Origin: an uncultured Prevotellaceae bacterium
GTDB lineage: Bacteria; Bacteroidota; Bacteroidia; Bacteroidales; Bacteroidaceae
Assembly: GCA_902775605.1 (NCBI GenBank)
Contig: CACYNE010000008.1
Location: 466 to 64,465 of the forward strand
DNA: 64,000 nucleotides
Direction of reading: 5' to 3'
Shown here: piece after piece, positions 21,072-35,207 of the stretch
How positions within the stretch are numbered: the stretch's first letter is position 1
Layout of the letters: each line of letters begins with the position of its first letter
Made by a program: the position numbers and the translations under genes
The notes under the pieces: model-generated
What the model was told of the DNA's origin: nothing
Seen by the model: the letters and a program-made list of their open reading frames with translations, nothing else
The model's database searches: none

Positions 21072-21462
21072 ACCATTTTGGCTTTAGTTTTCTCATTTTT
21101 CAAATGTTCGCCGCAAAGGTACTCAAAATTTGTCTATTTCACGTGAAAACTTCTGAAAAGTTTGGAAAGTTATTTAATGATTCCTAGCATAATTTGTTAT
21201 CAGCATGTTGTGCATATTGCGGATGAGTTGTGGAGTATCATAGGAGATGAAATCAATATCATTCTGGTTTAATGATTCAAAATAGTCCGTATGAGACATT
21301 TTCAATTGCCTACAATACCATCATCAACTCTATGGCTACTGCCATCATAATCTTTTACTCATTCCTGAATATTTTTATTTTAGAAATTCTGCCATATTTT
21401 CTTGATACACGCTGCCGTAGTTGTGAGCATTATAAACCTTGACATGCGAGCCGGATGTGTTC

Positions 21463-21489
21463 TGCGTACGAGCCGTATAGAGGTAGCCG
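21463..21489 (-). repeat. 27-nt exact copy of an internal segment of the GH127 gene (20641-20667)
   Basis: TGCGTACGAGCCGTATAGAGGTAGCCG at both positions. Confidence 0.9.
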
Positions 21490-21508
21490 ACGTCTCAATT
21501 TGTTTTAT

Positions 21509-21783
21509 TTAAGAACAGAAATCATCGGGATATGGTTTATCAGCTGGCATTCTTCCATCTTTTAGTGCCTGATCAATCATCTCCATTGTCCTTCTAATAC
21601 TCTCTTGCATTTCTCGCATTTCCTCAGGAGTTTGAAATCCTCCTGTGGCCTTGTCAAGTTCTTCCTCAGACATTTCCACTACACCTGCTTCTACGAGCTC
21701 GTCGTAGATGGCCTTCATTCTTTTACTTTCTCTGCGAGCAGTTGCTTCTTCTGCTCAATCTGTTCGATTGTCATTTTTGCCAT
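21509..21783 (-). pseudogene. Double-glycine precursor P1 (type A leader), frameshifted
   Basis: MAKMTIEQIEQKKQLLAEKVKE*; 1 nt missing near 21719 relative to paralogues; continues MKAIYDELVEAG..ELDKATGG|FQTPEEM..DDFCS. Confidence 0.75.
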
Positions 21784-21827
21784 TTTTTTTATTTTTTTTG
21801 TTAACTTACGCAACGATGTTTTGTCGT

Positions 21828-22025
21828 TTATTGGAAAACCAACTTATGCTTTTTTATTGCATCCCAATATTTATCAGGATTAGGATTCCCACCTGCAGCC
21901 TCATTGAGGTCCTTCTCGTCAAGGGGCCATGCGCCGGCCTCCACGAGTTCGTCTTTCAGTTGCTTTACTTCTTCAGCCAGTTGCTTCAACTGCTGTTTTT
22001 TCTGCTCAATCTGTTCGTTAGTCAT
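21828..22025 (-). CDS. Double-glycine precursor P2 (type B), core NPNPDKYWDAIKKHKLVFQ
   Basis: Conserved leader ending WPLDEKDLNEAAGG. Confidence 0.88.
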   Translation of the reverse strand: MTNEQIEQKKQQLKQLAEEVKQLKDELVEAGAWPLDEKDLNEAAGGNPNPDKYWDAIKKHKLVFQ

Positions 22026-22066
22026 TGCTACAATGTTTTTTTAATAGATCATTTATTTTTTTCACG

Positions 22067-22261
22067 TTAGGGCATTTCAGCGAATTCCAATACCATCTTG
22101 CGCCAGTTCTCATCAGCAGTGCTTCCGCCAGCTACGTGATTGAGTTCTTCATCGGACATCTCGATAGCACCGGCCTCTACAAGTTCGTCGACGAGGGCTT
22201 TTATTTCCTTTGTTTTCTCTGCGAGCAGTTGTTTCTTCTGCTCAATTTGCTCTGCTGTCAT
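22067..22261 (-). CDS. Double-glycine precursor P3 (type A), core STADENWRKMVLEFAEMP
   Basis: Leader MTAEQIEQKK..IEMSDEELNHVAGG; start reassigned to ATG 22261 by alignment. Confidence 0.88.
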   Translation of the reverse strand: MTAEQIEQKKQLLAEKTKEIKALVDELVEAGAIEMSDEELNHVAGGSTADENWRKMVLEFAEMP

Positions 22262-22302
22262 AGTTCTTATAATGCTTTTTGTTTTAATGATTAATGAGTT
22301 TT

Positions 22303-22500
22303 CTAGAAGTTCCAAGCATCTAGATTTATTGGAGTCAACATTGCCCATAAATCAAGTGCTATACCACCAGTGGCTTTGTCCAAATGTTCTTCAGACAGTT
22401 CTAATGCGCCAGCCTCTACGAGTTCGTTGACGAGGGCTTGCATTTCATTTATTTTCTCTGCGAGCAGTTGTTTCTTCTGCTCAATTTGCTCTGTTGTCAT
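22303..22500 (-). CDS. Double-glycine precursor P4 (type A), core IALDLWAMLTPINLDAWNF
   Basis: Leader ending LELSEEHLDKATGG. Confidence 0.88.
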   Translation of the reverse strand: MTTEQIEQKKQLLAEKINEMQALVNELVEAGALELSEEHLDKATGGIALDLWAMLTPINLDAWNF

Positions 22501-22523
22501 AATATAAAAATGGTTTTAGAATC

Positions 22524-22745
22524 TTACATAAATTTGTGGGGGAACGGATTAAGATGTGGATTATGCTTATCTACAGGCCTTATGTCCGGTATATATAATC
22601 CTCCTGCTGCATCGTTAAGGTCTTTCTCGTCAAAGGGCCATGCTCCGGCTTCAACGAGTTCGTCCTTCAATTGCTTTACTTCTTCAGCCAGTTGCTTCAA
22701 CTGCTGCTTCTTCTGTTCTATCTGTTCGGTTGTTAATGTAGCCAT
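22524..22745 (-). CDS. Double-glycine precursor P5 (type B), core LYIPDIRPVDKHNPHLNPFPHKFM
   Basis: Leader ending WPFDEKDLNDAAGG. Confidence 0.88.
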   Translation of the reverse strand: MATLTTEQIEQKKQQLKQLAEEVKQLKDELVEAGAWPFDEKDLNDAAGGLYIPDIRPVDKHNPHLNPFPHKFM

Positions 22746-22758
22746 AATCTTAAAGTAT

Positions 22759-22944
22759 TTAAAAGAATTTTCTTTTTATGTCGCGGAACACGGGATAACC
22801 TCCAGCGGCTTCGTCAAGTTCGCTTTCAGACAATTCGATTGCACCTGCCTCTACGAGTTCGTCATAGATGGCCTTCATTTCCTTTGTTTTCTCTGCGAGC
22901 AGCTGTTTTTTCTGCTCTATCTGTTCGGTTGTTAATGATGCCAT
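22759..22944 (-). CDS. Double-glycine precursor P6 (type A), core YPVFRDIKRKFF
   Basis: Leader ending IELSESELDEAAGG. Confidence 0.88.
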   Translation of the reverse strand: MASLTTEQIEQKKQLLAEKTKEMKAIYDELVEAGAIELSESELDEAAGGYPVFRDIKRKFF

Positions 22945-22985
22945 GATGCTTAATATATTAATGGTGATTATTATGAGGAAGGAAA

Positions 22986-23222
22986 TTAAAGAAAGGTAGG
23001 ACCCTTCGGTCTCTCGGGTTTCGTTGGTTTCCTTGAATCCCAGAACTCTCCAGCGCCACCTTTCAGAATACTTCCAGCCTGAACGCCTCCAGCGGCTTCG
23101 TCAAGTTCGCTTTCATCAAGGGGCCATGCACCAGCCTCTACTAATTCGTCCTTCAACTGCTTTGCTTCTTCAGCCAACTGTTTCAGTTGCTGCTTTTTCT
23201 GCTCAATCTGTTCTGCTGTCAT
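22986..23222 (-). CDS. Double-glycine precursor P7 (type B), core VQAGSILKGGAGEFWDSRKPTKPERPKGPTFL
   Basis: Leader ending WPLDESELDEAAGG. Confidence 0.88.
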   Translation of the reverse strand: MTAEQIEQKKQQLKQLAEEAKQLKDELVEAGAWPLDESELDEAAGGVQAGSILKGGAGEFWDSRKPTKPERPKGPTFL

Positions 23223-23279
23223 AATCGTAAGTCTTTAATAATTCATTTTAAAATAAATGACCAAACTTCTGAAGTGCCT

Positions 23280-23450
23280 CTAATACACCAGGAAGAAGAC
23301 CCCCCCCCCTGTGCTCTTTTCTAGTTCTTCCTCAGACAATTCAATTGCACCTGCCTCTACGAGTTCGTCGTAGATGGCCTTCATTTCCTTTGTTTTTTCT
23401 ACGAGCAGTTGTTTCTTCTCTTGAATCTGCTCTGATGTTAATGTTGCCAT
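23280..23450 (-). CDS. Double-glycine precursor P8 (type A, 56 aa, absent from ORF track) with G10 tract at the GG site
   Basis: Manual translation MATLTSEQIQEKKQLLVEKTKEMKAIYDELVEAGAIELSEEELEKSTGG|GVFFLVY*. Confidence 0.85.
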   Translation of the reverse strand: MATLTSEQIQEKKQLLVEKTKEMKAIYDELVEAGAIELSEEELEKSTGGGVFFLVY

Positions 23451-23562
23451 AATACTTAAATTTTTTATTGTGATTATTAGGTGGATAGGGTTGCGCCTTC
23501 CCGTGACAGTTTACTCGTCGCCGTCCCATGTCGGGATTCAGCCGATGCCCGTCAGTCGGATT

Positions 23563-23748
23563 TCACATTAGTGGGCCCCACAGGTGCCAGTCTCGTATCC
23601 ATCCTCCAGCAACGTTCTCAAAGTCTTCTTCAGACAACTCTATCGCTCCGGCATCCACCAGTTCCTTGGTGAGGGCTTGCGCTTCTTCTGTCAACTGTTT
23701 CAATTGCTGCTTCTTCTGTTCAATCTGTTCTGCTGTCATTGTTGCCAT
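23563..23748 (-). CDS. Double-glycine precursor P9 (B/A hybrid leader), core WIRDWHLWGPLM
   Basis: KKQQLKQL front half, IELSEEDFENVAGG back half. Confidence 0.85.
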   Translation of the reverse strand: MATMTAEQIEQKKQQLKQLTEEAQALTKELVDAGAIELSEEDFENVAGGWIRDWHLWGPLM

Positions 23749-23784
23749 TATTGTATTGTTTTTAAATTGCGTTTATCTATATTA

Positions 23785-24024
23785 TCAGAGCAACCACCAC
23801 CGACCACGTTGCAAATTCTCCCAGTCTCTTTCGGCTTTTTCTAAACCTGGAGGTGTAACTCCACGCGGAACCTTCTTCCCTCCTGCTGCCTCGTTGAGGT
23901 CGTTGTTATCCAAGGGCCATGCTCCGGCTTCCACCAGCTCGTTTTTCAGTCCCATCACTTCTTCAGCCAGTTGCTTCAACTGCTGCTTCTTCTGTTCAAT
24001 CTGCTCTGCTGTTAATGTTGCCAT
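23785..24024 (-). CDS. Double-glycine precursor P10 (type B), core KKVPRGVTPPGLEKAERDWENLQRGRWWLL
   Basis: Leader ending WPLDNNDLNEAAGG. Confidence 0.88.
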   Translation of the reverse strand: MATLTAEQIEQKKQQLKQLAEEVMGLKNELVEAGAWPLDNNDLNEAAGGKKVPRGVTPPGLEKAERDWENLQRGRWWLL

Positions 24025-24057
24025 GATCTTAAAGTTTTTAATTTAATTGGTTATTTG

Positions 24058-24258
24058 TTATTCACTTTTTTCTTTTGATTGTTCCCCTGCTTGCCGCAGT
24101 TTTTCGCGCATCTCCATATTCTCGTTGATAAACTTCTCTAAATGGACGTTATTATCACTGACGCGCCACCTATAATATATTAAGGTGAACACCAGGCCGA
24201 GGACCACCATGACGATGGCTACTCCCAAGGCTACTGAAATGACAAATGATACTTCCAT
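24058..24258 (-). CDS. Small single-TM membrane protein (66 aa), first gene of the precursor operon
   Basis: Hydrophobic stretch VSFVISVALGVAIVMVVLGLVFTLIYY then a charged helix; lies downstream of the -7 box at 24285-24292. Confidence 0.7.
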   Translation of the reverse strand: MEVSFVISVALGVAIVMVVLGLVFTLIYYRWRVSDNNVHLEKFINENMEMREKLRQAGEQSKEKSE

Positions 24259-24284
24259 GTTGTTTTGTTGTTTGATTTCGGATG

Positions 24285-24351
24285 CAAAGTTACGGAGAGT
24301 TGGCAAAACAAGTGTCCCACTATAGGAAAACCATGTCCCAAATCAGGAAAA
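24285..24351 (-). promoter_or_regulatory. Promoter with tandem 21-bp-period operator repeats
   Basis: TAACTTTG box (24285-24292); TGTCCCA..GGAAAA at 24313 and 24334. Confidence 0.8.
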
Positions 24352-24353
24352 TC

Positions 24354-26066
24354 TTACGAATTCTCTGATTTTTTGGCGTTTGTCACCTGACGATACTCTG
24401 TGCATGTCATGCCGTAGGCATTACGGAAGAGGCGTGCCAGGGTAGAACGGCTGGGTATGCCCGACAACTCGCCGATAACGGCAATGGAATCGTCGGTGGC
24501 CTTCAGCAGACGGGCAACATGCTCCAGACGGTAGCGGGTGATGAAGTCATTGACTGTTTCGCCGTGTGAACACTCGCGGATAGCCTGCTCAACATACTTC
24601 GCGTTAGTGGCGAGCATCTGGGCAAGTGTATCGCGGTTCAGCGTCTCGTCGGTATAAGGTTTTTGCTCGGCCATGAGGTCACAGATGCGGCGGAAAAGCT
24701 GTTGCTCAGTAGTGAGACGTTCCTCGGGCTCTGCCTTCAACTGCTCGATGGCCTGCTGCTCCTCCTGTTCACGCTGTTCTATCTCGGCCACCAAGCGACG
24801 GTTCTTTTCAAGGAGCACCTTGTTATATCTGGCAGTTCGCCAGAACAGGTAACCTATGAGCAGGCTGATGAGTGCGGCAGCAATGGCGAGGATGCGATAG
24901 ATAGTGGACTTGGTCTCTTCGTCCTTCAGCAGCATCTCTTTCTCCTGCGTCTTCATCTGCTGGGCATACTTCAGTGTCTCTGCCTGACGCTCGCGCTGCA
25001 CCAGACTGTCTGTCAATACTATATTGCGCAAGAGTTGCTCGTATGCCTCATGACTCTTTCCAATCTTGTCTAAGCCCATAGCGTAGGTTTTCAACCACGA
25101 TGCATAATCTATGGAGATGGTATCCATACGCTCTTTGTAGTAGGGCTCCAAGACTGCACAGATTTGGCTGATGCGCTGGCTGCTTCCGGAGAGAATATAA
25201 TAACTCAGAATGTCGCTCTGATGATCTGGGAGCTGACTGCATGGGAGATTCTCGAAAAGCTGTGCACTATGGCTGGCAGCAGCTTTGTCACCCAGCTGGT
25301 ACTGGCAGTAGGCCATAATGCTATAGATATATGCACGCTGTTGGTCAACAAAGCCAGCTGGCGCGGTGGTATATTCTTTCTCGATACGGTCAATCACTGG
25401 CAAACGCTCCTCAGTGAGTTTCAAAGCGCGGGCAAAGTCCCCATGGTTAATGGCATGACGCGCCACGCTGCCAAGATAGGCTGAGAACATCGGCATGGCT
25501 TGGATGTTGGTGCTACCACGGAACAGATCCAGCGAGCGGTCTAGATACTCGACGCCGCTGCCGGTCTGCACCTTTTCCATCGTCTCTCCCGCTTCAAAAT
25601 AGAACATGGCCTCCTCGCCATTCCAGCCATACTCATGTGCTATCTTTGCACCCTCGATGGCATAGCTGATGGCATCCTGGTATGTCTTTGAATCTTTGTT
25701 GCCGATAGAAGTCAACAGATGGTAGGTTCTGACGCGCTGCAGACTGTCTGGTGCCTGGTCCTGATTGTTCAGAATGGCCATACAATACTCGCGTGCTTTA
25801 TCAATATCTTCCTTTGAGCCTTTCACTAAATAAATCTGGGCTCGCATCCAGTTGGCATAGTTTGCGTCGGCTACCCCCTTCATCTGGGCAGTGTCCACCA
25901 GTCCGAGGGCATGCTCTGGCTGTACCATTATTGACTGGCGGATGTACTCCCATGTATAGATACTATCGGCCTCGGAGCCCTGCTCCGTATTACCATGATT
26001 TGTGCACCCTACCATCAGAGACAGTAAGGTGCACAGTATGAACACACTCTTTTTAATCATTTTCAT
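24354..26066 (-). CDS. Membrane-anchored AraC-family regulator with helical (TPR-like) extracytoplasmic sensor
   Basis: N-terminal signal ending LMVGC, long helical region, TM ILAIAAALISLLIGYLFW, C-terminal HTH (LAQMLATNAKY..RYRLEHVARLL..LFRNAYGMTCTEYR). Confidence 0.88.
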   Translation of the reverse strand: MKMIKKSVFILCTLLSLMVGCTNHGNTEQGSEADSIYTWEYIRQSIMVQPEHALGLVDTAQMKGVADANYANWMRAQIYLVKGSKEDIDKAREYCMAILNNQDQAPDSLQRVRTYHLLTSIGNKDSKTYQDAISYAIEGAKIAHEYGWNGEEAMFYFEAGETMEKVQTGSGVEYLDRSLDLFRGSTNIQAMPMFSAYLGSVARHAINHGDFARALKLTEERLPVIDRIEKEYTTAPAGFVDQQRAYIYSIMAYCQYQLGDKAAASHSAQLFENLPCSQLPDHQSDILSYYILSGSSQRISQICAVLEPYYKERMDTISIDYASWLKTYAMGLDKIGKSHEAYEQLLRNIVLTDSLVQRERQAETLKYAQQMKTQEKEMLLKDEETKSTIYRILAIAAALISLLIGYLFWRTARYNKVLLEKNRRLVAEIEQREQEEQQAIEQLKAEPEERLTTEQQLFRRICDLMAEQKPYTDETLNRDTLAQMLATNAKYVEQAIRECSHGETVNDFITRYRLEHVARLLKATDDSIAVIGELSGIPSRSTLARLFRNAYGMTCTEYRQVTNAKKSENS

Positions 26067-26070
26067 TAGT

Positions 26071-26103
26071 TCACTTCTTTTTCTCAATCTGTTCGTTAGT
26101 CAT
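26071..26103 (-). pseudogene. Truncated precursor-leader relic MTNEQIEKKK*
   Basis: ATGACTAACGAACAGATTGAG identical to the P2 start; stop 4 nt before the regulator ATG. Confidence 0.7.
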
Positions 26104-26114
26104 AATTATAGAGT

Positions 26115-26321
26115 CTAAAAAAAGTTTTTCGTATATTGTTCTAATATATTCCCAATGATGGGAGGTATTCCTTTGCTTCCAGCAGCCTCGTCAAGGTCAT
26201 TTTCGTTAAGGGGCCATACTCCAGCCTCTACGAGTTCATCGTAGATAGCCTTTATTTCCTTTACTTTCTCTGCGAGCAGTTGTTTCTTTTGCTCAATCTG
26301 TTCGTTAGTCATTGTTGCCAT
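26115..26321 (-). CDS. Precursor P11 (A/B hybrid leader, GS site), core KGIPPIIGNILEQYTKNFF
   Basis: KKQLLAEK front half, WPLNENDLDEAAGS back half. Confidence 0.85.
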   Translation of the reverse strand: MATMTNEQIEQKKQLLAEKVKEIKAIYDELVEAGVWPLNENDLDEAAGSKGIPPIIGNILEQYTKNFF

Positions 26322-26352
26322 AATACTTATTGCTTTATTTTTTTTCGTTAAA

Positions 26353-28341
26353 TTACCATATCTTTACGCGGTCCTCGGGCTTGAGGTACAGTTTGTCCGT
26401 GGGCTGCACGTCGTAGAGACGGTACCAGTCATCAAAGAGGCGGACGATGCCGTTAACGCGGTTGTGACCTGCGGAGTGTACATCACCGGTGAGCATTTCC
26501 GCCAGTGCATCCACGCTACGTTCGCTGTCCGTGAGAGCGACGGGAAGTCCATATGCGAGCCAGAACTTCTTAAGCTGGGCGTCGAACTGTTCCCCAGTGA
26601 AACCCTGCTGGCGCAAACGGGCACTATAAGCCTCGATGGCCAGTGTGACGCCACCATAGTCGGCCATGTTCTCGGGGAGGGTCTTCTGTCCGTCGGCCGG
26701 TTGTCCGGGATATTGCTCCAGTTGGTTCCAGAGGGCAACGAGCTGTTGTTGTTTGGCCTGGAAGGCCTCCTTGTCGGCAGCTGTCCACCAGTCGCGTTTG
26801 GATCCCATCTCGTCGTATTGCGAGCCGGCGGCATCAAATCCGTGGCACATCTCATGGCCAAAGACCGCAGCAGTACCGTAGAGCGTTGCCTCGCTCAGGG
26901 AGGTGTCGAAAATAGGAGTAATCAGGAACGCAGGAAGGATGACCAGCTGGTTACTATTCGGAGAGTATGTGGCATTAAAGGTTGTGAAGGATGTGTAAGT
27001 ACACCAGAAGTCCCAGCCGTTGGTGGTGATGCTCTTCCCTACCATCTTGCGGATAGCGGCCGTCTGATGGCGGCGCAGGCTGCCGACGGCCTCGAGCAGC
27101 GTGTTCCCCTCGATGATGGGGGTCATTTCGTCGTTCCACTCGTCAGGATAGCCGATGAAAAAGAGCATACTGTCCAGTTTCTTCCGGGCGGCCAGCTTCG
27201 TTGTTGTACTCATCCACTCAAGGCCGTCAATGCGCTCGCGGAATATGCTGCGGAATTCCTCCATGATTTCTGCACAGCGCTCCTTATGGATGTTCTGCGG
27301 GCCAAATGCTTCTACCTGAAGGTGAAACATATGGTATTTGGCATGGAGCATGGCATACCTCATGCGGATGATACTTTGTAACGAAGGCGAAAGCGTGTGG
27401 ATATAAAACATGTCAGAGGTGAAGACGTAGGCTATCAGGTAGTCGCGCATCTTGGCCACACTCTCTTCGCTGCCCTCCAGCAGCATGCCCATCAGCTGCT
27501 CCATGGCCTCGCTTTCTTCCTCATCGTCGATGTCCTGCATCTGGTCGGCCAGGTCGCCGATGCCCATCAGCTGACATACCTGACGGCACGCTGTAGAGGC
27601 ACCGCGGGTCTCAGCCCGGGTCACCGGAGCCTGCGGGCGGAGCATCCTGTTGAACCCCCTGTCGTAGGCCAGCATCTCTATTTTTTCTACGGCCAGTGCG
27701 TTCGCCACTATCTCCGCGATGCGCTCTTTGCTGATGTCCAGCTTGGCCAGCCAGCTGCAACCGGCCGACAAGTTGTTGGCCAGCATCTCCTCGTTTTTCC
27801 TGTTGAAGGCATCTATAACGACAAGGGACGGCAACTCGGACGTTAAATAAGGACCCATCATTCTTTGCTCGGCGAAGGCCACCAGGCGCACGACAGGACT
27901 GTAACCCCACTGGTGCAGCTGCGCGAAGGCCTCCAGCAGTTCCTCTTGCGTCGTAATGGCCGATAGGCGGTCTATGCGTTCCTTCAGCAATGCCATGTCG
28001 GCGGCATCGTCGGTCTCGCCTGCTGTTGCCAACTGTCTGAGGGTCACAATGGCCGGGTCGTCGGAGTTAGCCAACACCTCTGCCTCTATCCCTGACAGTT
28101 TCTGCATAGTAATAGTCGACATTGCCTGTAGTTGGTTGTCGGCAAGCCACTTGCCATACTGATACCTGAAGAAGTCATCGCCAGGACGAACTGATGTGTC
28201 GATGTACTGGTCGTAGTTGAACGGCTTGTCGTCGGTCACCACCACGGGCACGGGATTGTCGTTGTCGTCGGTACACGATGTTAGCACCGTCATGGTCATC
28301 ATCAGCGTTAAGGCCGCTGCCAGCATTAAAATCTTTTTCAT
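26353..28341 (-). CDS. M13 (PepO/neprilysin-like) zinc endopeptidase lipoprotein
   Basis: Lipobox LTSC followed by TDDNDN; RPGDDFF, NATY, HEMCHGFD, ENMADYGG. Confidence 0.92.
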   Translation of the reverse strand: MKKILMLAAALTLMMTMTVLTSCTDDNDNPVPVVVTDDKPFNYDQYIDTSVRPGDDFFRYQYGKWLADNQLQAMSTITMQKLSGIEAEVLANSDDPAIVTLRQLATAGETDDAADMALLKERIDRLSAITTQEELLEAFAQLHQWGYSPVVRLVAFAEQRMMGPYLTSELPSLVVIDAFNRKNEEMLANNLSAGCSWLAKLDISKERIAEIVANALAVEKIEMLAYDRGFNRMLRPQAPVTRAETRGASTACRQVCQLMGIGDLADQMQDIDDEEESEAMEQLMGMLLEGSEESVAKMRDYLIAYVFTSDMFYIHTLSPSLQSIIRMRYAMLHAKYHMFHLQVEAFGPQNIHKERCAEIMEEFRSIFRERIDGLEWMSTTTKLAARKKLDSMLFFIGYPDEWNDEMTPIIEGNTLLEAVGSLRRHQTAAIRKMVGKSITTNGWDFWCTYTSFTTFNATYSPNSNQLVILPAFLITPIFDTSLSEATLYGTAAVFGHEMCHGFDAAGSQYDEMGSKRDWWTAADKEAFQAKQQQLVALWNQLEQYPGQPADGQKTLPENMADYGGVTLAIEAYSARLRQQGFTGEQFDAQLKKFWLAYGLPVALTDSERSVDALAEMLTGDVHSAGHNRVNGIVRLFDDWYRLYDVQPTDKLYLKPEDRVKIW

Positions 28342-28362
28342 CTTTCAGTATTTCTTGATATA

Positions 28363-28953
28363 TTATTCAATTTTGCCGGTACTGATCTGGTTTCCGTCCT
28401 TGTCGAAGGTGTAGGTCTTGTTCAGCACGCCGCCGCGACGCTCCCATGCCTCGGTATATGCAGCCAGTTTATCGCCGCTGGTGCTGGCGTGGGTGGAGGC
28501 AGAGCCCGTGAAATCGACGGTCTTTCCCCAGGCTTTCTCGGCTTTGGTGGTGATGCCCTCGATGTAGAGCAGGTTGCTGACGGGATAGATATTGCTGATG
28601 CGGACGCCTTCGAGCTGGGCATCCTCCTTCACCTTCACGCTGACCTTCAAGCCGAAGGTAGCGGGGAACTGGGTGCTGCTCACGCCTTTCATCCACGTGG
28701 CCGTGCCGTCTTTCGTTGTCCACGTGGCCTGTTCGGTCGTCAGCTCACCGTTGATGCCGTAGTAGGTCATGGTATAGTCGCACAACTGCGCCATCTGCTC
28801 GTCTACACTGAAGAGATAGCGTGCAGCGATGCCCTTGATTTCCGTCGTGTTAGGCGTGTTGTTTTCGTCATCGTCGCTTCCGCAGGCGGTGAATACTGTC
28901 GTTGTCATTGCGCAGCAAAGGACGGCTGCGAGCGTTATCAAAAATTTCTTCAT
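28363..28953 (-). CDS. Hypothetical surface lipoprotein
   Basis: Lipobox FTAC followed by GSDDDEN. Confidence 0.8.
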   Translation of the reverse strand: MKKFLITLAAVLCCAMTTTVFTACGSDDDENNTPNTTEIKGIAARYLFSVDEQMAQLCDYTMTYYGINGELTTEQATWTTKDGTATWMKGVSSTQFPATFGLKVSVKVKEDAQLEGVRISNIYPVSNLLYIEGITTKAEKAWGKTVDFTGSASTHASTSGDKLAAYTEAWERRGGVLNKTYTFDKDGNQISTGKIE

Positions 28954-28989
28954 TGTTGATAGAATTTAATATTATTACCTAGTTATATA

Positions 28990-31269
28990 TTATAAGCGGA
29001 TGAGGGTGGAACCGAGGTTGCCCACCTGTACGGCATAGACGCCAGCGGCGAATCCTGAGAGGCTGACGCTGCCATTGTCGCAGATAGTCTTAAGGACAGG
29101 ACGGCCACTGAGGTCATAAATGGTCACGGCGGCGGCTTCCAAGCCGTCAATGTAGAGGGTGCGGCCAGCGACGCGGAATTTGACACCAGCAGGCTGATGA
29201 TTACTGAGTTCGGGGATGCTGGTGCCAAGGCCCAGAATATCCAGCAGACCGGCGTATGCATCAATCTCGCCCCAACCGTAATAGACATTCTTGTCGGTAC
29301 CGCTGAACTCGGGTTCGGGCTGGTGGCTGGTGCGCTCGATGACGCCGAGGATGTCTTCGGGTGTGAGGTCGGGCTTGGCTTGCAGCCAGAGGGCGATGAT
29401 GCCGGCGGTGATGGGCGACGACATGGAGGTACCGCTCATGGCCCATACGGCGTAGTCGTTGCCGAAGACGTTTTTATAGTAGGGCATCAGAGGGATGGTC
29501 TCGTCGCGGGTGGCCTGCAGGTCGTGATTATTGCGGTAGAAGCTGTTGAGGGCGGAGATGATGTTGTGGCCGGGGGCTACGACGTCGGGCTTCACGCGGC
29601 CGTCGAGGGTGGGACCGCACGAGCTGAAGCTGACGAGCGTGCCCTCCTGGCTGCCTGCGGGGTAGGAAGAATTGGTCTCTCCCCAGATGTTGGTGAACTG
29701 CGAGCGGTGGTGCATGGCGCCGACGGTGATGATGCGCTCCATGCTGGCTGGGTAGCCGACGGTGCATTTCTGGCAGCCGCGCGAGTTTTCATCGTTTTCT
29801 TCCGAGAAGGCCACAGTCTCGCCTTGGATGGAGGCGCCCATCATCTGGATTTCCACGGGGTCTTCGATGAGAATCTTGCCGTTGGTCTGCATCCAGCCGT
29901 CTTCGTAGGTGATGGACTCCGCATAGTCGTTCAGGGGCATCAGCATGATTTTAATGGCTATCTTATCGTTAGCTAAGATATCCGCAGAGACGGTCATCTC
30001 CACTTCGGGTTTCTCGACCACGAGAGTATCCCCGGCCTGGGCGGCGGCAATGGCGTCGCGGGTGTCGAAGAAGAGCGTGTCGGGCGCGTCGCGGAGGGTG
30101 ACGCCTACGCGGAAGTCAGAGGCAGACATGTCGGCGCGCAAGTTCATGTAGAATCTATCGGTATAGCCATAGTAATAGACATCCTGCTCCAGTGGCGTGT
30201 AGGCATCTTTTTCCACATAGGTCTTCTCGCCGCCTTCGTTGCCGGCCGAGGCCACGACGATGCGGCCCGGACCCACAAGGCGGTTGAACACCTGTTCGTA
30301 GAGCGTGCCGTCATAATAGAAGTCGGGAGGGGCGCCAAAGCTCCAGTTCACTACGCAGGGCTGTCCGGCGGCGTCGGCCTGCTGGAAAATCTTGCAGAGT
30401 TCCACAAGAAGGATGGTGTCATACATATCTATTTGAAGAATGGCATCCTTGACGTTCTGAAAGCCCATGATATGGCTTATCAAGAACTCGCGCAGGGCAT
30501 CCATCCACTCGTCATCCACCTGCCCTAAAGGGATATAGGCACCCATGATGTCGGCCTCGGGAGCCATGCCCACGTAGCGGCCGTCCAGTCCGTTGCCGGC
30601 CATCGAGCCCAGCACATGGGTGCCGTGGTTTTGCACGTCGGCATCTATGCTGTGGCGGGCGGCCAGCACCTCGGCGGGCGTGGCGTATATCATGCCGAAG
30701 GTGTCGTTGTTGGCGTGGGGGGCCGTCGGGTCCCAGAACCATTTGATGCGCGAGGTGCCGTCGTCGTTGCGGAAGGCAGGATGGGTAAAGTCGAAGCCCA
30801 CGTCCATCACGGCGGCGATGACGCCCTTGCCGGTGAAGGCCTGGGGCAACTGCGACTGACCATTCCACACCTTGTCGGCACCGATGATGACGGCGCTGGT
30901 GTCGTTATGCAGCGTCGCGGGCTTGTTGGCCTCCAAACGCAGGATGGTGCTGCTCTGTTCCATGACACCGAGGCTGTCCATGGGCAGGAAGGCGGCACAG
31001 ATGCCCTCGCCGAAGTCCTGAACCACCACGCCGCCCTTCTCACGAAGGCTCTGCGCTTGGTCGGTGCTCTCCACCAGCGTCAGCATATACTTCATCACGG
31101 GGCGGCCCTGTGTGCGCAGCCTGCCGCCACTCTGCTTCACCGCCTCTTGCTGCTGCCGATACTGACCACGCAGCCAGGGCGACATCTTCGATGGTTTCGG
31201 GAGGCCTTGCGCCTCGATGGCCATTGCGCAGCAGAGGACGGCTGCGAGCGTCATAAAAAACTTCTTCAT
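28990..31269 (-). CDS. S8 subtilisin-like serine protease with T9SS tail
   Basis: Triad motifs VMDVGFD, HGTHV, GTSMSSP; SAGNEG; tail IYDLSGR..AGVYAVQV. Confidence 0.92.
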   Translation of the reverse strand: MKKFFMTLAAVLCCAMAIEAQGLPKPSKMSPWLRGQYRQQQEAVKQSGGRLRTQGRPVMKYMLTLVESTDQAQSLREKGGVVVQDFGEGICAAFLPMDSLGVMEQSSTILRLEANKPATLHNDTSAVIIGADKVWNGQSQLPQAFTGKGVIAAVMDVGFDFTHPAFRNDDGTSRIKWFWDPTAPHANNDTFGMIYATPAEVLAARHSIDADVQNHGTHVLGSMAGNGLDGRYVGMAPEADIMGAYIPLGQVDDEWMDALREFLISHIMGFQNVKDAILQIDMYDTILLVELCKIFQQADAAGQPCVVNWSFGAPPDFYYDGTLYEQVFNRLVGPGRIVVASAGNEGGEKTYVEKDAYTPLEQDVYYYGYTDRFYMNLRADMSASDFRVGVTLRDAPDTLFFDTRDAIAAAQAGDTLVVEKPEVEMTVSADILANDKIAIKIMLMPLNDYAESITYEDGWMQTNGKILIEDPVEIQMMGASIQGETVAFSEENDENSRGCQKCTVGYPASMERIITVGAMHHRSQFTNIWGETNSSYPAGSQEGTLVSFSSCGPTLDGRVKPDVVAPGHNIISALNSFYRNNHDLQATRDETIPLMPYYKNVFGNDYAVWAMSGTSMSSPITAGIIALWLQAKPDLTPEDILGVIERTSHQPEPEFSGTDKNVYYGWGEIDAYAGLLDILGLGTSIPELSNHQPAGVKFRVAGRTLYIDGLEAAAVTIYDLSGRPVLKTICDNGSVSLSGFAAGVYAVQVGNLGSTLIRL

Positions 31270-31328
31270 AATAACCTTTTTTAAATTATTAAATTATTCA
31301 AGGTTTTAATTCTTCAATTTTATATTAG

Positions 31329-33335
31329 TTACCAAATCTTCACGCGGTCTTCGGGAGCGAGGTAGAGCTTGTCCGTGGGCTGCACGTCGAAGAGGCGATA
31401 CCAGTCGTCCTGCAGACGCACCTGCCCATTGATGCGGATGTGAGGGAGTGCGTGGGTGTCTTTCTCGTGATAATGCTTCAGTTCGTCGATCGACAGTTCC
31501 CTTTCCATTTTCCAGAAGGCTGCGAAGGAGATGAAAAACTTCTTGATCTGCTCGTCGAACTGCGCGCCGGTGAAGCCCTGCTCTTTGAGGCGCTGCTTGT
31601 AGCACTCCAAAGCCAGCTCTATGCCGCCGTAGTCGGCCATGTTCTCGTCCAGCGTCTGCATGCCGTTAGCGTTCACTCCGGGATAGTCCTCCAATTGGCT
31701 GAAAAGGTCTATCATGGCCTGCTGCTTCTGCTGGAAGGCCTCCCTGTCGGCAGGCTCCCACCAGTCGCGCTTTATGCCGTCGGCATCATACAATGAGCCA
31801 TTGGCATCGAAGCCGTGGAAGAACTCATGGGCGAAGACGTAGGAGGTAGTATAGTAAGTGGACTCGCTCAAGCTGCTGTCAAAGCGGGGACGGGTAATCC
31901 AGGCTGGCAGGATGACGAGGCAGTTAGCAGTACGCTGGTAGAAGGCGTTGTCGGTGGTGAATTGTGCGATGATGGCCCATACGTCCCAAGGATTATCGTC
32001 GAGGTTCTTACTTGTCAGGGCGAGGTTCTTCTTCAGCGCGTCCTGACGCAACTGGGTGGCAGTCTCCAGCAGGCAGTCGCCGCTGACGGCGGGCGTCATG
32101 GCGTCGTTCCAAGTGTCGGGATAGCCAATATAGAACTTCATGGCCTCAGCCTTCTTGCGGGCCTCGGCTTTGGTGGCGTCGCTCATCCAGTCGAGGCTGT
32201 CGATGCGCTGGATGAAAATCTGGCGCATGCGCTCCAGAATGTCCTGGCACTCCTGCCTGTAGATATTATCGCGGCCGTAGTTTTCCACCGTCACGCGGTA
32301 TTTGTAGTATCGGTTGTATTGCAGCGCTCTCTGCAACATGGCCGTGCGGTCGGCCTGCGCATTGGCGGAGGGTACGAAGGGAGCATCCTGTGCCACCACG
32401 TTGTAAATCATGTAATCGCGGTAGGCATTGATATTCTCCTGATCATCAACGGTGGCAAAATGGCGGATTAACTGTATGATTTCGTTACTGGAGTAGATGA
32501 AGCGACCGGAGGTGAAATCGTCGTAAGTAAGTCCCATCATCTCGATAATAGCACCAAACTTCTGATTGACCTCGTCGTCTTCGGAGGAACGGCGTGGAGC
32601 CTGCAACCGGTGCTTCACCATCTCCAGGCCATACCTGTAGCTTTGCTGCTCGGCGGTCTCCACCGCAATGGCGTTTTTGATAATCTCTGCTACGCGTTCG
32701 GGCGTGTAGCCAAGGCTGGTGAGTGGCTGGCAATAGGCGCGGACAAGGCTGTCTATCTTTTCCGGCTTCTGGCGCATAAACACTTCCTTCAGCATCTCAT
32801 CGGGCATGCCGCCGGTGGTGATGGCAAGGACCGTCTTCTTGCCCTCGTTCACGAAAGGAATCAGGCGGAACAGCGGGCTGTAGCCCAACTCGTAGAGGGT
32901 GCCGAAGACGGCATGCAACTGGTCGGCGGTCTCAATCTGTTCCAGCATCTGCAGGCGCTCCTTCAGCAGAGCCACGTCGCGGCTGTCGTCGACCAGCGTC
33001 GCGTCGGCCTGACTGCGCAGCATGACCAGCAGCGGGTCCTGGCTGGTGGCTAATGCATCGTCGGATAACTGATCCAACTGGTCCTCAACCTGCTTCATCA
33101 TAGAGGGCGCAGGGTTAGGGCTATTGAGCCACAGTCCGTTGATGTAGCGGTAGAAGTCGTCGCTCGGGCGCACCGTCTCGTCAATGTCGGTGCCGTAGGG
33201 GAACGGCTTGTCGTCGGTCACCACCACGGGCACGGGATTGTCGTTGTCGTCGGTACACGATGTCAGCACCGTCATGGTCATGAGCAGCGTGACGGCTACC
33301 CATAACAGTCTTTGATAGTAATGATTGTAATTCAT
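31329..33335 (-). CDS. Second M13 zinc endopeptidase lipoprotein
   Basis: Lipobox LTSC; RPSDDFY, NAFY, HEFFHGFD, ENMADYGG. Confidence 0.92.
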   Translation of the reverse strand: MNYNHYYQRLLWVAVTLLMTMTVLTSCTDDNDNPVPVVVTDDKPFPYGTDIDETVRPSDDFYRYINGLWLNSPNPAPSMMKQVEDQLDQLSDDALATSQDPLLVMLRSQADATLVDDSRDVALLKERLQMLEQIETADQLHAVFGTLYELGYSPLFRLIPFVNEGKKTVLAITTGGMPDEMLKEVFMRQKPEKIDSLVRAYCQPLTSLGYTPERVAEIIKNAIAVETAEQQSYRYGLEMVKHRLQAPRRSSEDDEVNQKFGAIIEMMGLTYDDFTSGRFIYSSNEIIQLIRHFATVDDQENINAYRDYMIYNVVAQDAPFVPSANAQADRTAMLQRALQYNRYYKYRVTVENYGRDNIYRQECQDILERMRQIFIQRIDSLDWMSDATKAEARKKAEAMKFYIGYPDTWNDAMTPAVSGDCLLETATQLRQDALKKNLALTSKNLDDNPWDVWAIIAQFTTDNAFYQRTANCLVILPAWITRPRFDSSLSESTYYTTSYVFAHEFFHGFDANGSLYDADGIKRDWWEPADREAFQQKQQAMIDLFSQLEDYPGVNANGMQTLDENMADYGGIELALECYKQRLKEQGFTGAQFDEQIKKFFISFAAFWKMERELSIDELKHYHEKDTHALPHIRINGQVRLQDDWYRLFDVQPTDKLYLAPEDRVKIW

Positions 33336-33347
33336 GTTTTTGAATGA

Positions 33348-35207
33348 TTAATAATGATAGTACTCGTTGATGATGTTGCTCAGGCTGTTGAGGTTGTATA
33401 GATTCCTGTAGCTGTAGACGAGAAACTCCCTACCCTGGTAAACGGCGGTTTGCTGATTGTCGTAGCCAATGATTACATTCGGGGTGATGCCGCTGTCGAT
33501 AGACTGCCAGTGTTCGTCGTTTAGGTGGCCGCGTGCTGAGGATATTCTGTAGAAGAAACCGTCGGCAGTGCGATAGCTGCCTATACCACAGCTGCCGCCG
33601 CCGCTCTTCTGTCCGGCAACGAGCACTCCGGCCTCCTTGCAGAGTGCAGGCATGAGGTTGCCGCAGGAGAAGGACAAGGGGCTGGTGAGGATACAGAAGT
33701 TCAGGTCGTAGTGCACGTCGTTGTCCTTCTCGTCGAACTTGCCGTCGAAATTGCGGTCCACGTCGTAGTACCAGGTGATGCGCTGGTCGGTAATCACGTT
33801 GAGGGCCCTGTAAAAGCTCTGTCCATAGATGAGCGAGGTCATGGCGACTACCACATCCGAAGAGCCGCCGAGGTTGACAGTTAGGTCGATGACCAGGTTC
33901 TTTACATCGGGGTCATTGTCGGCCTTTTCGAGGGCATCGAGGAAGATGACCATAGGATCGTTGGGACTGGTCTCCATCGTCGGGCGTGGCGCGGTGCCGT
34001 TGTAGAAAGCATTCCAGGCTTCTTTGTCGGTGTCGCCGAAGCTGTCGAAATGGCAGATGGCCGTATTGCCCTGCTTATGGTAGGTGTTCTGGTCGCCGAA
34101 TATATTCGCGCGCTGCGGGATGGCGAGCGAATTTATCTGAGTATTCTCCATGACAGTAGGGAACATGACTTTTTCCTGATAGAACTCGTACATGTCGGGA
34201 TACTTCTGCTCGAAGGTTTGATTCACCACGGGGAGCTTTCCCAGATTCCACATCACGGTATGTCCGCGGTCCCAGAGAAAGGCGTTGAGCATGTCCATGC
34301 CTCCAGCGTAGTCCTGCATGTCGGCGGAAAGCAACATCTCTTTCACTTTCTGTCCCATGGCGTCGGCCTCAAGGGTTTTGTCCAGTCCTACGCGCAGGAT
34401 GGAGGCCTCGAAGTCGGAGCCCGTGGGAAAGCCGTACAAATGGTCGACGACAAAGCAGAGCTCTGCATAGCTGAAGGCAATCATGTCGGCATTGCGCTGG
34501 CCGCTCTTCATCAGATTTTCGGCCGAGAAGTCCTCATCCAGGCCCTCGATACCGGTTTGACTGTAACTATCCCTACTTGAAAAGACAACCTTCTCTCCGT
34601 TGCAGGCCACATTATGGCCGAAGAGGTCGGAGTAGAGGTCGGCGAGCGTGGTGAAGGGGAAATAGACGCCTGCGTCATCGCCGCGCAGGTTGATACCGTA
34701 GGAGGCGTAGTCGAAGGTTACTGCCGGCGAGCCGCCGCTAAGCGTCTGGTGACTGAAGCGGATATAGGGGTAGCCGTCGTAGTAGCCGTTTTCCATGCCT
34801 GGCTGCACCAGTCCCATCAGGTTGGTAAAAGCCATATAGTCATCAAAGGCGCAGGTCTCGTTGACGGTGCTGACCGTGGCCGTGGCGCCTGCGTTGTTCA
34901 GCAGATAGAGCCCCGTGCCGGTCTTGGTCACGGCCACGGTGCTGCCTGGCAGTACCACGCTCTGGAAGTCGCTCACCGAGATATAGGGCACATGGGGCAT
35001 GTCCTCGTAGAAACGTATGGTCACGGTGCCGGCAGACTGGCCGTCGCGGTTCACGGGCACTTGCTTCGTGGTGTAGCCCGTCTGGTCGTCGGGGTTCGTT
35101 TCCTGTTGCGTCGTTGCGTTGTCGTCGTTGTCGGTACACGATGTCAGCACCGCTGTTGTCATCATCAGCAGCATTAAGGCCGCTGCAGCTATGAGAATCT
35201 TTTTCAT
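33348..35207 (-). CDS. S41-family peptidase lipoprotein
   Basis: Lipobox LTSC; VIDLTVNLGG, SFSCGN, GQKSGGG, GITPNV. Confidence 0.8.
   Translation of the reverse strand: MKKILIAAAALMLLMMTTAVLTSCTDNDDNATTQQETNPDDQTGYTTKQVPVNRDGQSAGTVTIRFYEDMPHVPYISVSDFQSVVLPGSTVAVTKTGTGLYLLNNAGATATVSTVNETCAFDDYMAFTNLMGLVQPGMENGYYDGYPYIRFSHQTLSGGSPAVTFDYASYGINLRGDDAGVYFPFTTLADLYSDLFGHNVACNGEKVVFSSRDSYSQTGIEGLDEDFSAENLMKSGQRNADMIAFSYAELCFVVDHLYGFPTGSDFEASILRVGLDKTLEADAMGQKVKEMLLSADMQDYAGGMDMLNAFLWDRGHTVMWNLGKLPVVNQTFEQKYPDMYEFYQEKVMFPTVMENTQINSLAIPQRANIFGDQNTYHKQGNTAICHFDSFGDTDKEAWNAFYNGTAPRPTMETSPNDPMVIFLDALEKADNDPDVKNLVIDLTVNLGGSSDVVVAMTSLIYGQSFYRALNVITDQRITWYYDVDRNFDGKFDEKDNDVHYDLNFCILTSPLSFSCGNLMPALCKEAGVLVAGQKSGGGSCGIGSYRTADGFFYRISSARGHLNDEHWQSIDSGITPNVIIGYDNQQTAVYQGREFLVYSYRNLYNLNSLSNIINEYYHY

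Follow-up and report, generated by a model that had tools for sequence, protein, structure and literature searches.

In the assembly studied here, the small secreted-peptide gene P8 of an uncultured Prevotellaceae bacterium is best explained as a rare, derived and frameshifted allele of an otherwise intact double-glycine-leader gene, a reading to which we assign a probability of about 0.6. The Gly codons at its leader/core junction form a run of ten G, which we read not as a conserved contingency tract but as a mutable OFF allele or a lesion present in a minority. For annotation, caution is advised: the 56-aa P8 of this metagenome-assembled genome (MAG) is a truncated allele, while the species' real P8 product is a precursor of 67-68 aa with an amphipathic core of 18-19 aa. 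The allelic series G5, G8 and G10 indicates that Gly-Gly codons can seed a slippery tract. If the length of this tract varied reversibly, it would offer a small, clean case of a contingency tract arising in the peptide arsenal of a gut commensal. Of greater interest than the tract is probably the wider peptide family. Its leader is long and conserved, its cores number about twelve and are hypervariable, a peptidase-containing ABC transporter (PCAT) likely acts in trans, and the family is spread over many rumen Prevotellaceae.

The analysed window is the whole stretch of 64,000 nucleotides at positions 466-64465 of contig C8 of the MAG, a rumen Prevotella-like genome (G000; 2.99 Mb in 83 contigs, 86% complete). 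Sequence near-identical to the window occurs in bovine-gut metagenome runs.

A poly-G tract at the leader/core junction

On the forward strand, positions 23300-23309 read CCCCCCCCCC, and the corresponding coding strand of P8 runs ...GAA AAG AGC ACA GGG GGG GGG GTC TTC TTC CTG GTG TAT TAG, with a translation that terminates in ...EELEKSTGGGVFFLVY* (Table 1). A preliminary description of this DNA had placed a C10 run on the Gly-Gly site of P8, which the sequence bears out. It had further proposed that tract length selects among three reading frames and that the long frame stops at 23248; changing the tract in silico reproduced both statements. G10 yields GGGVFFLVY, G9 yields GGGSSSWCIRGTSEVWSFILK, G8 yields GGGLLPGVLEALQKFGHLF and G11 yields the G8 product with one additional Gly, the stop of the G8/G11 frame being a TAA at 23250-23248. 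Each of the three frames remains open for 7-19 codons behind the tract. The remnant of the conserved core in the G8/G11 frame is intact and amphipathic but lies out of the leader's reach at G10. The amphipathicity ascribed to the G8-frame core beforehand was likewise recovered: the helical hydrophobic moment of the in-frame core GVLEALQKFGHLF is 0.54, a value reached by 0.3% of shuffled sequences. For the two alternative cores of the G10 and G9 frames, the same shuffle test returned no amphipathicity beyond chance.

Runs of this length are exceptional in the genome. Counts of G/C runs fall from 1178 at length 5 to 125, 10, 3 and 0 at lengths 6, 7, 8 and 9, and the P8 tract, the single run of 10, is the sole G/C run of at least 9 bases in 2.99 Mb. 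Extrapolating the roughly tenfold drop per added base, a run of 10 would be expected well under once per genome. The second-longest G/C run within the window measures 7, and none of the three runs of 8 elsewhere in the genome, at C16:15852, C19:38240 and C55:642, lies within a long open frame or a recognizable gene. The paralogues do encode the site with mixed Gly codons, as had been described (GGA GGC, GGA GGT, GGT GGT, GGC GGA and others), and their G runs are 2-3 bases long. The GG site was compared in 53 distinct family members, drawn from contig C45, from the window and from 35 loci in other rumen Prevotellaceae: 51 of them have G runs of 2-3 there, and only the two P8 alleles reach 8 and 10.

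On the opposite strand, an ORF of 45 aa at 23187-23324 (+), in which C10 would encode PPP, runs antisense to P8 and was dismissed for want of support. Promoter and terminator scans gave nothing beyond chance.

Table 1. Features of the P8 region and the exporter locus, with P8 orthologue classes (a slash divides leader from core)
Feature	Position	Strand	Description
G10 homopolymer (C10 on +)	23300..23309	-	P8 Gly codons, leader/core junction
P8 in this assembly	23280..23450	-	56 aa; 49-aa leader ending STGG, then G-VFFLVY, premature stop
Out-of-frame remnant of conserved core (..LLPGVLEALQKFGHLF + TAA)	23248..23299	-	Match to 66-68 aa orthologues P0002-P0012, P0014, P0022, P0122
Candidate core peptides, G10 and G5 strains			GVFFLVY, (G)GLLPGVLEALQKFGHLF, FFLLPGVLEALQKFGHLF
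Array of ten paralogous precursors in tandem, P8 included	21509..24024	-	Constant leader, variable cores; alignment A1
Eleventh family member	26115..26321	-	Leader ends AAGS; core loosely like in-frame P8 core
Exporter locus	G000 contig C45:12600-19100 (L012:4607-11157)		PF03412 and gene order
Orthologues GG/FFLLPG...			37 contigs; P0006 alone on 33, longest contig 181 kb
Orthologues GG/LFLLPG...			18 contigs; P0007, P0009, P0011, P0012, P0014
Orthologues GGG/LFLLPG...			11 contigs; P0002, P0008, P0122
Orthologue GGG/VLLPG..., in frame			1 contig; P0003
Orthologues ...GGGVFFLVY*, frameshifted			3 contigs; P0121, the window's exact 56-aa protein; NCBI, Logan, ENA; longest contig 121 kb
Orthologues ...GGGFFFLVY*, frameshifted			2 contigs; P0001; contigs 742 nt or less

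P8 alleles in other strains

Logan contigs from three runs of three different studies (X2, X3 and X5) were aligned to positions 21400-24400. The contigs that span the site measure 1058, 1299 and 1297 nt at depths of 22.6, 13.2 and 9.55, respectively, and all end more than 255 nt away from the tract site. On the forward strand, all three replace the first five C's (23300-23304) by AAAAA and an inserted T; the aligner placed the difference in X5 slightly otherwise, and its sequence is the same as that of X2 and X3. Their coding strand reads ACA GGG GGA TTT TTT CTT CTT CCT GGT, i.e., the junction is G5-A-T6 (12 nt) as compared with G10-T (11 nt) in the window. G5-A-T6 corresponds to G5-A-T5 plus the shared T at 23299 and is one base longer than the window. 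This allele translates into an in-frame precursor of 67 aa, ...STGG FFLLPGVLEALQKFGHLF*, identical to P0006. Between X3 and the window there are nine substitutions and one gap in 1299 nt; six of these ten differences fall at the tract and four outside it. A run with raw reads from the same study as X3 (X22) contributed 0 reads on the stretch.

A pattern scan of JGI metagenomes found one contig (L010), which over 1240 nt shares 98.5% identity with the window and has a single indel, of 4 nt, at the tract. Its junction, ACA GGG GGG GGA TTA TTT CTT CTT, is G8-A-TTATTT and translates to GGG/LF; as G8-A-TTATT plus the shared T, it is four bases longer than the window.

With the 56-aa P8 as query, the protein collection returned 16 distinct orthologues on 72 contigs (Table 1), whose tallies are to be read as rough proportions, the contigs not being independent samples. 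On 67 of the 72 contigs, P8 stands in the G8/G11 frame, and on the remaining five it is frameshifted. Together with the contigs of the three independent runs, this agrees with the earlier suggestion that the G8/G11 frame is ancestral. The G10-frame product GVFFLVY is confined to the few frameshifted contigs, and the G9-frame product (...SSSWCIRG...) was never met among the best 120 of 272 relatives. The longest contig with P0121 extends over 121 kb, compared with 68 kb for the contig that holds the window.

Orthologues of P8 outside this species were found neither by DNA search of 40 relatives, nor by leader-profile search in 80 genomes of the genus, nor by a P8-specific pattern scan of species-representative genomes, and the P8-type core is absent from the 35 family loci of other genomes.

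Proposed origin of the G10 allele

We propose that the starting point was the junction found species-wide, ACA GGG GGA TTT TTT (or TTA TTT) CTT CTT, which yields ...STGG followed by FFLLPGVLEALQKFGHLF. The common G5-A-T6 form already contains the family's longest G run at a GG site. This junction of two abutting short homopolymers has been altered repeatedly (FF versus LF, G5 to G8, and from G8 on to G9-10), and we therefore take it to be a local mutational hot spot. Remodelling to G8-A-TTATTT adds one Gly and keeps the frame, while a small sublineage would have acquired a pure run of G9-10 with loss of the A/T block. Since the window junction counts 11 nt instead of 12, the ribosome would exit the leader out of frame and stop after GVFFLVY. 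The likely consequence would be the loss of one peptide from a redundant set of twelve. Under this reading, G10 would be genuine DNA of the strain and the truncated P8 product presumably inert. A tract of this length probably slips appreciably, so that G11-type revertants (GGGG-LLPG...) would be expected, a by-product of the tract's length rather than the work of a selected switch.

Several observations weigh against a rare frameshift allele. Five substitutions and a one-base loss separate G5-A-T6 from the window, and two substitutions and a four-base loss separate the G8 allele from it, which leaves no simple mutational path. The three P0121 records may all stem from the same reads. Moreover, three states of the long-G sublineage in six contigs would also be expected of a hypermutable and possibly selected tract. 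As judged from their proteins, P0001 would fit a junction like G9-TT-CTTCTT and P0003 one like G10-TT-CTTCTT; these putative junctions lie one G apart, and the G10-T-CTTCTT of the window would be one T short of that of P0003. The predicted states G9T2, G10T1 and G10T2 are thus compatible with slippage in this sublineage. A gene-conversion donor of the G run was also considered and rejected: the genome holds no other G/C run of at least 9 bases, and there is none in the paralogues.

The clustered, multi-base nature of the difference, odd for a natural mutation, raises the question of whether G10 exists in the DNA of the organism at all. A sequencing error or mis-assembly at the G-run/T-run junction of a metagenome of modest depth would be favored by the fragmentary state of the MAG (86% complete, 83 contigs), by the three other samples, which agree with one another and not with the window, and by the known Illumina bias towards T-to-G miscalls after G runs. 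Yet de Bruijn assemblers emit only k-mers found in reads, and miscalls remove no bases, yet the window lacks 1 nt or 4 nt relative to the other alleles. More than one assembly apparently produced G10, because the window's exact 56-aa product is recorded from three sources, namely NCBI, ENA and Logan assemblies. The large ORFs of the window are intact, and the source run X1 has 0.99 of the sampled 31-mers of the stretch, although this is weak evidence, the measure being too coarse for the k-mers of G10. We consider an artefact of sequencing or assembly unlikely as the origin of G10.

A further explanation, which other readings do not exclude, keeps the DNA fixed at G10 and restores the frame during expression: a fraction of the product would enter the LLPGVLEALQKFGHLF frame, either by slippage of RNA polymerase or by a ribosome slipping -1 at G GGG GGG, and the one gene would deliver two peptides, one short and one long. 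It is established that polymerases slip on long homopolymers and that tRNAs re-pair on runs of identical bases, and the downstream frame has no stop before the ancestral TAA. An intact downstream frame is, however, equally predicted by a recent lesion; no notable structure follows the tract (the fold of 23225-23325 (-) has z = -0.31), and bacterial transcript slippage is known mainly on A/T runs. In insect endosymbionts, polymerase infidelity at poly(A) tracts rescues frameshifts. P8 likewise combines a frameshifting homopolymer with an intact downstream frame, which could yield some full-length product, but the known cases concern A/T runs and the run in P8 is G. On balance, such recoding appears quite improbable.

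Slippage as a possible switch

The preliminary description had proposed that slippage in the tract would exchange the mature peptide, with three possible cores, and leave the leader intact. As a programmed three-way switch, this would imply three functional cores, GVFFLVY, GSSSWCIRGTSEVWSFILK and G(G)LLPGVLEALQKFGHLF, and it is in keeping with the openness of all three frames for 7-19 codons past the tract. The idea is not supported by comparison with other strains, most of which lack the tract and carry G5-A-T6 or G8-A-TTATTT in its place. In addition, the G9-frame product is absent from the best 120 of 272 relatives, the G10-frame product occurs rarely and only in the frameshifted minority of contigs, neither alternative core is amphipathic beyond chance, and G runs at the site do not exceed 3 in the other family members. 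We regard a three-way switch as highly improbable.

A rival proposal is that the G9-10 tract of the sublineage is a young ON/OFF switch of P8, reversible by slipped-strand mispairing, with G10-TT or G11 as ON states and G10-T or G9-TT as OFF states, such that the peptide set varies between cells. A G10 run reaches a length at which tracts slip in bacteria with known homopolymer phase variation. Six contigs show the long-G alleles in three states, P0003 being in frame and P0121 and P0001 out of frame according to their proteins, and the G5, G8 and G10 alleles attest to repeated growth of the run. Set against this, the tract is missing in about 66 of the 72 contigs and in all three runs (X2, X3 and X5), the genome has no other coding G/C tract, and the 51 other family members have none. 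G number is not all that separates the states, whose DNA is deduced from proteins: the neighboring T bases differ as well. Homopolymer errors survive in short contigs of low coverage such as these (742 and 1159 nt). We therefore give a young switch little credence, though not a negligible amount.

The same doubt attaches, slightly more strongly, to the view that a homopolymer switch is seen at its birth, the cleavage codons having grown from G5 to G8 to G9-10 in one sublineage and now toggling the peptide by slippage of DNA or transcript while the leader is still made. If a switch did operate, individual cells would vary their peptide repertoire, and it would be a first case in Bacteroidales, otherwise known for invertible-promoter switches, of phase variation by simple sequence repeats (SSR) that acts on a GG-leader peptide's core.

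In the SSR phase variation of Campylobacter, Neisseria, Haemophilus and Bordetella, as in P8, a coding poly-G/C run of about 8 or more bases shifts frame upon a one-base change, and alleles of differing run length (G5, G8 and G10 for P8) occur in nature. Contingency tracts, however, are long across strains, come as a repertoire in each genome and sit in surface or modification genes, close to the 5' end, whereas the P8 tract is a minority allele, the sole one in its genome, lacking from paralogues, and placed where leader and core of a small secreted peptide meet. Measured by what defines a phase-variable locus, P8 does have a long homopolymer in its reading frame (G10); a slippery length is not kept across strains (G5-A-T6 in three runs, G8-A in L010), and a genome-wide repertoire of tracts is lacking, this being the sole G/C run of at least 9. 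We see no sign of selection for slippage, because the tract is unconserved, unique in the genome and without counterpart in the paralogues or the wider family, and no sign of a repertoire of homopolymer switches, because no other G/C run of at least 8 lies in a recognizable gene. These points return us to a rare frameshift allele of P8. A parallel may exist in blpA of Streptococcus pneumoniae, where frameshift alleles created by repeat insertion reportedly silence the bacteriocin locus in part of the species. Both cases have an intact or a frameshifted allele depending on the strain, a locus of peptide warfare or signalling, and an origin in a short repeat. They differ in that blpA frameshifts hit the exporter and silence the whole locus in a large share of strains, while in P8 one precursor of twelve is affected in a small share of contigs.

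The peptide family and its probable exporter

P8 belongs to a family with 13 matches genome-wide. In the eleven members of the window, a common leader of 46-49 aa, M(A)T(L)TxEQIEQKKQ...ELVEAGA...L(S/D)ExxLxxxxGG, precedes unrelated cores of 12-42 aa (alignment A1). Of twelve aligned members, eleven end the leader in ...[IW][EP]LS/D-E-x-[ED]-L-x-x-[AV]-[AT]-G-G, and one has GS. The leaders thus show the features of the double-glycine type, i.e., an end in GG or GA/GS and a hydrophobic/acidic pattern at -4, -7, -8 and -12. Most cores end with a hydrophobic or aromatic pair (HLF, KFF, NFF, KFM, WNF, WLL). The core of the eleventh precursor, KGIPPIIGNILEQYTKNFF, loosely resembles the in-frame P8 core ..LPGVLEALQKFGHLF.

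Pfam and NCBIfam contain no model that matches the peptides above cut-off. Sub-threshold leader matches were to a CTB bacteriocin model (18.5 bits vs a cut-off of 32) and to mersacidin-type models (13-17 bits), and TIGR01847, the curated GG-leader model, was not among the matches at E up to 1. A leader-profile search gave 0 matches in 80 genomes from the same genus. The leader family was found in 35 loci (L023-L057) of MAGs of rumen Prevotellaceae/Bacteroidaceae and of the cultured Xylanibacter ruminicola KHT3. The hosts of these rumen MAGs are cattle, buffalo, goat and roe deer, and a genome often has several copies. The family is patchy in its distribution and has no curated model.

In Bacteroidales, GG-motif precursors associate with PCATs (PMC10352776), an association also described for bacteroidetocins (PMC6671954). 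In the genome at hand, PF03412 has one match (114 bits), in an ABC protein of 735 aa on contig C45, the sole C39-peptidase ABC transporter. Gene order there comprises the 13th family member (84 aa, leader ...DQAAGG), an HlyD-like gene, the C39-ABC gene, a second ABC protein, an RND-type periplasmic adaptor and a TolC-like gene, a layout that, as predicted from sequence, is that of a Gram-negative double-glycine peptide exporter. The C39 exporter adjoins the 13th family member and is unlinked to the array in the window, whose products it likely processes and exports in trans, to judge by gene content.

In several respects the family resembles known GG-leader peptides, which PCATs export and cleave, such as class II bacteriocins, colicin V and bacteroidetocins: ...LSEEELxxxxGG forms the end of the leader, positions -12, -7 and often -4 are hydrophobic, the cores are variable, and a C39-ABC transporter lies beside the 13th member. 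It departs from them in the length of the leader (about 47-49 aa) with its long conserved N-terminal helix (EQIEQKKQ..ELVEAGA), in escaping the curated models, and in the position of the eleven-gene array away from the exporter and next to a TPR/AraC-type regulator and secreted peptidases.

The array is flanked (24354-35207, -) by this regulator, 577 aa long with an AraC-type HTH at its C-terminus, followed by two M13 peptidases, an S8 subtilase and an S41 peptidase and then by BspA-type LRR proteins. The gene content of this region suggests a putative peptide-sensing or peptide-degrading island.

Further variation was noted within the array. P1, its first gene (21509-21813, -), is frameshifted near 21717, where GAA TGA AGG stands in place of the siblings' GAA ATG AAG; one A is missing and the leader is split over two frames. 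Because the X3 and X5 contigs cover the place without an indel, this break, unlike that of P8, appears fixed in the species. Alternatively, P1 may start at the ATG at 21718 with a short leader. Upstream of P1, at 21783-21799, two T8 runs (A8 on the coding strand) likely belong to the promoter or 5' region, and X3 and X5 differ from the window there by two T>A changes and a one-base deletion. Some X5 contigs join paralogues (22024>23116 and 22025>23353) through anchors of only 20-21 nt, which may reflect variation in array copy number or assembly breaks at the repeated leaders. Run X2 has a 9-nt in-frame insertion, TTGGTTTCC (+), at 23023 in the core of the neighboring P7 (22986-23222, -), an instance of in-frame indels that vary core regions between strains.
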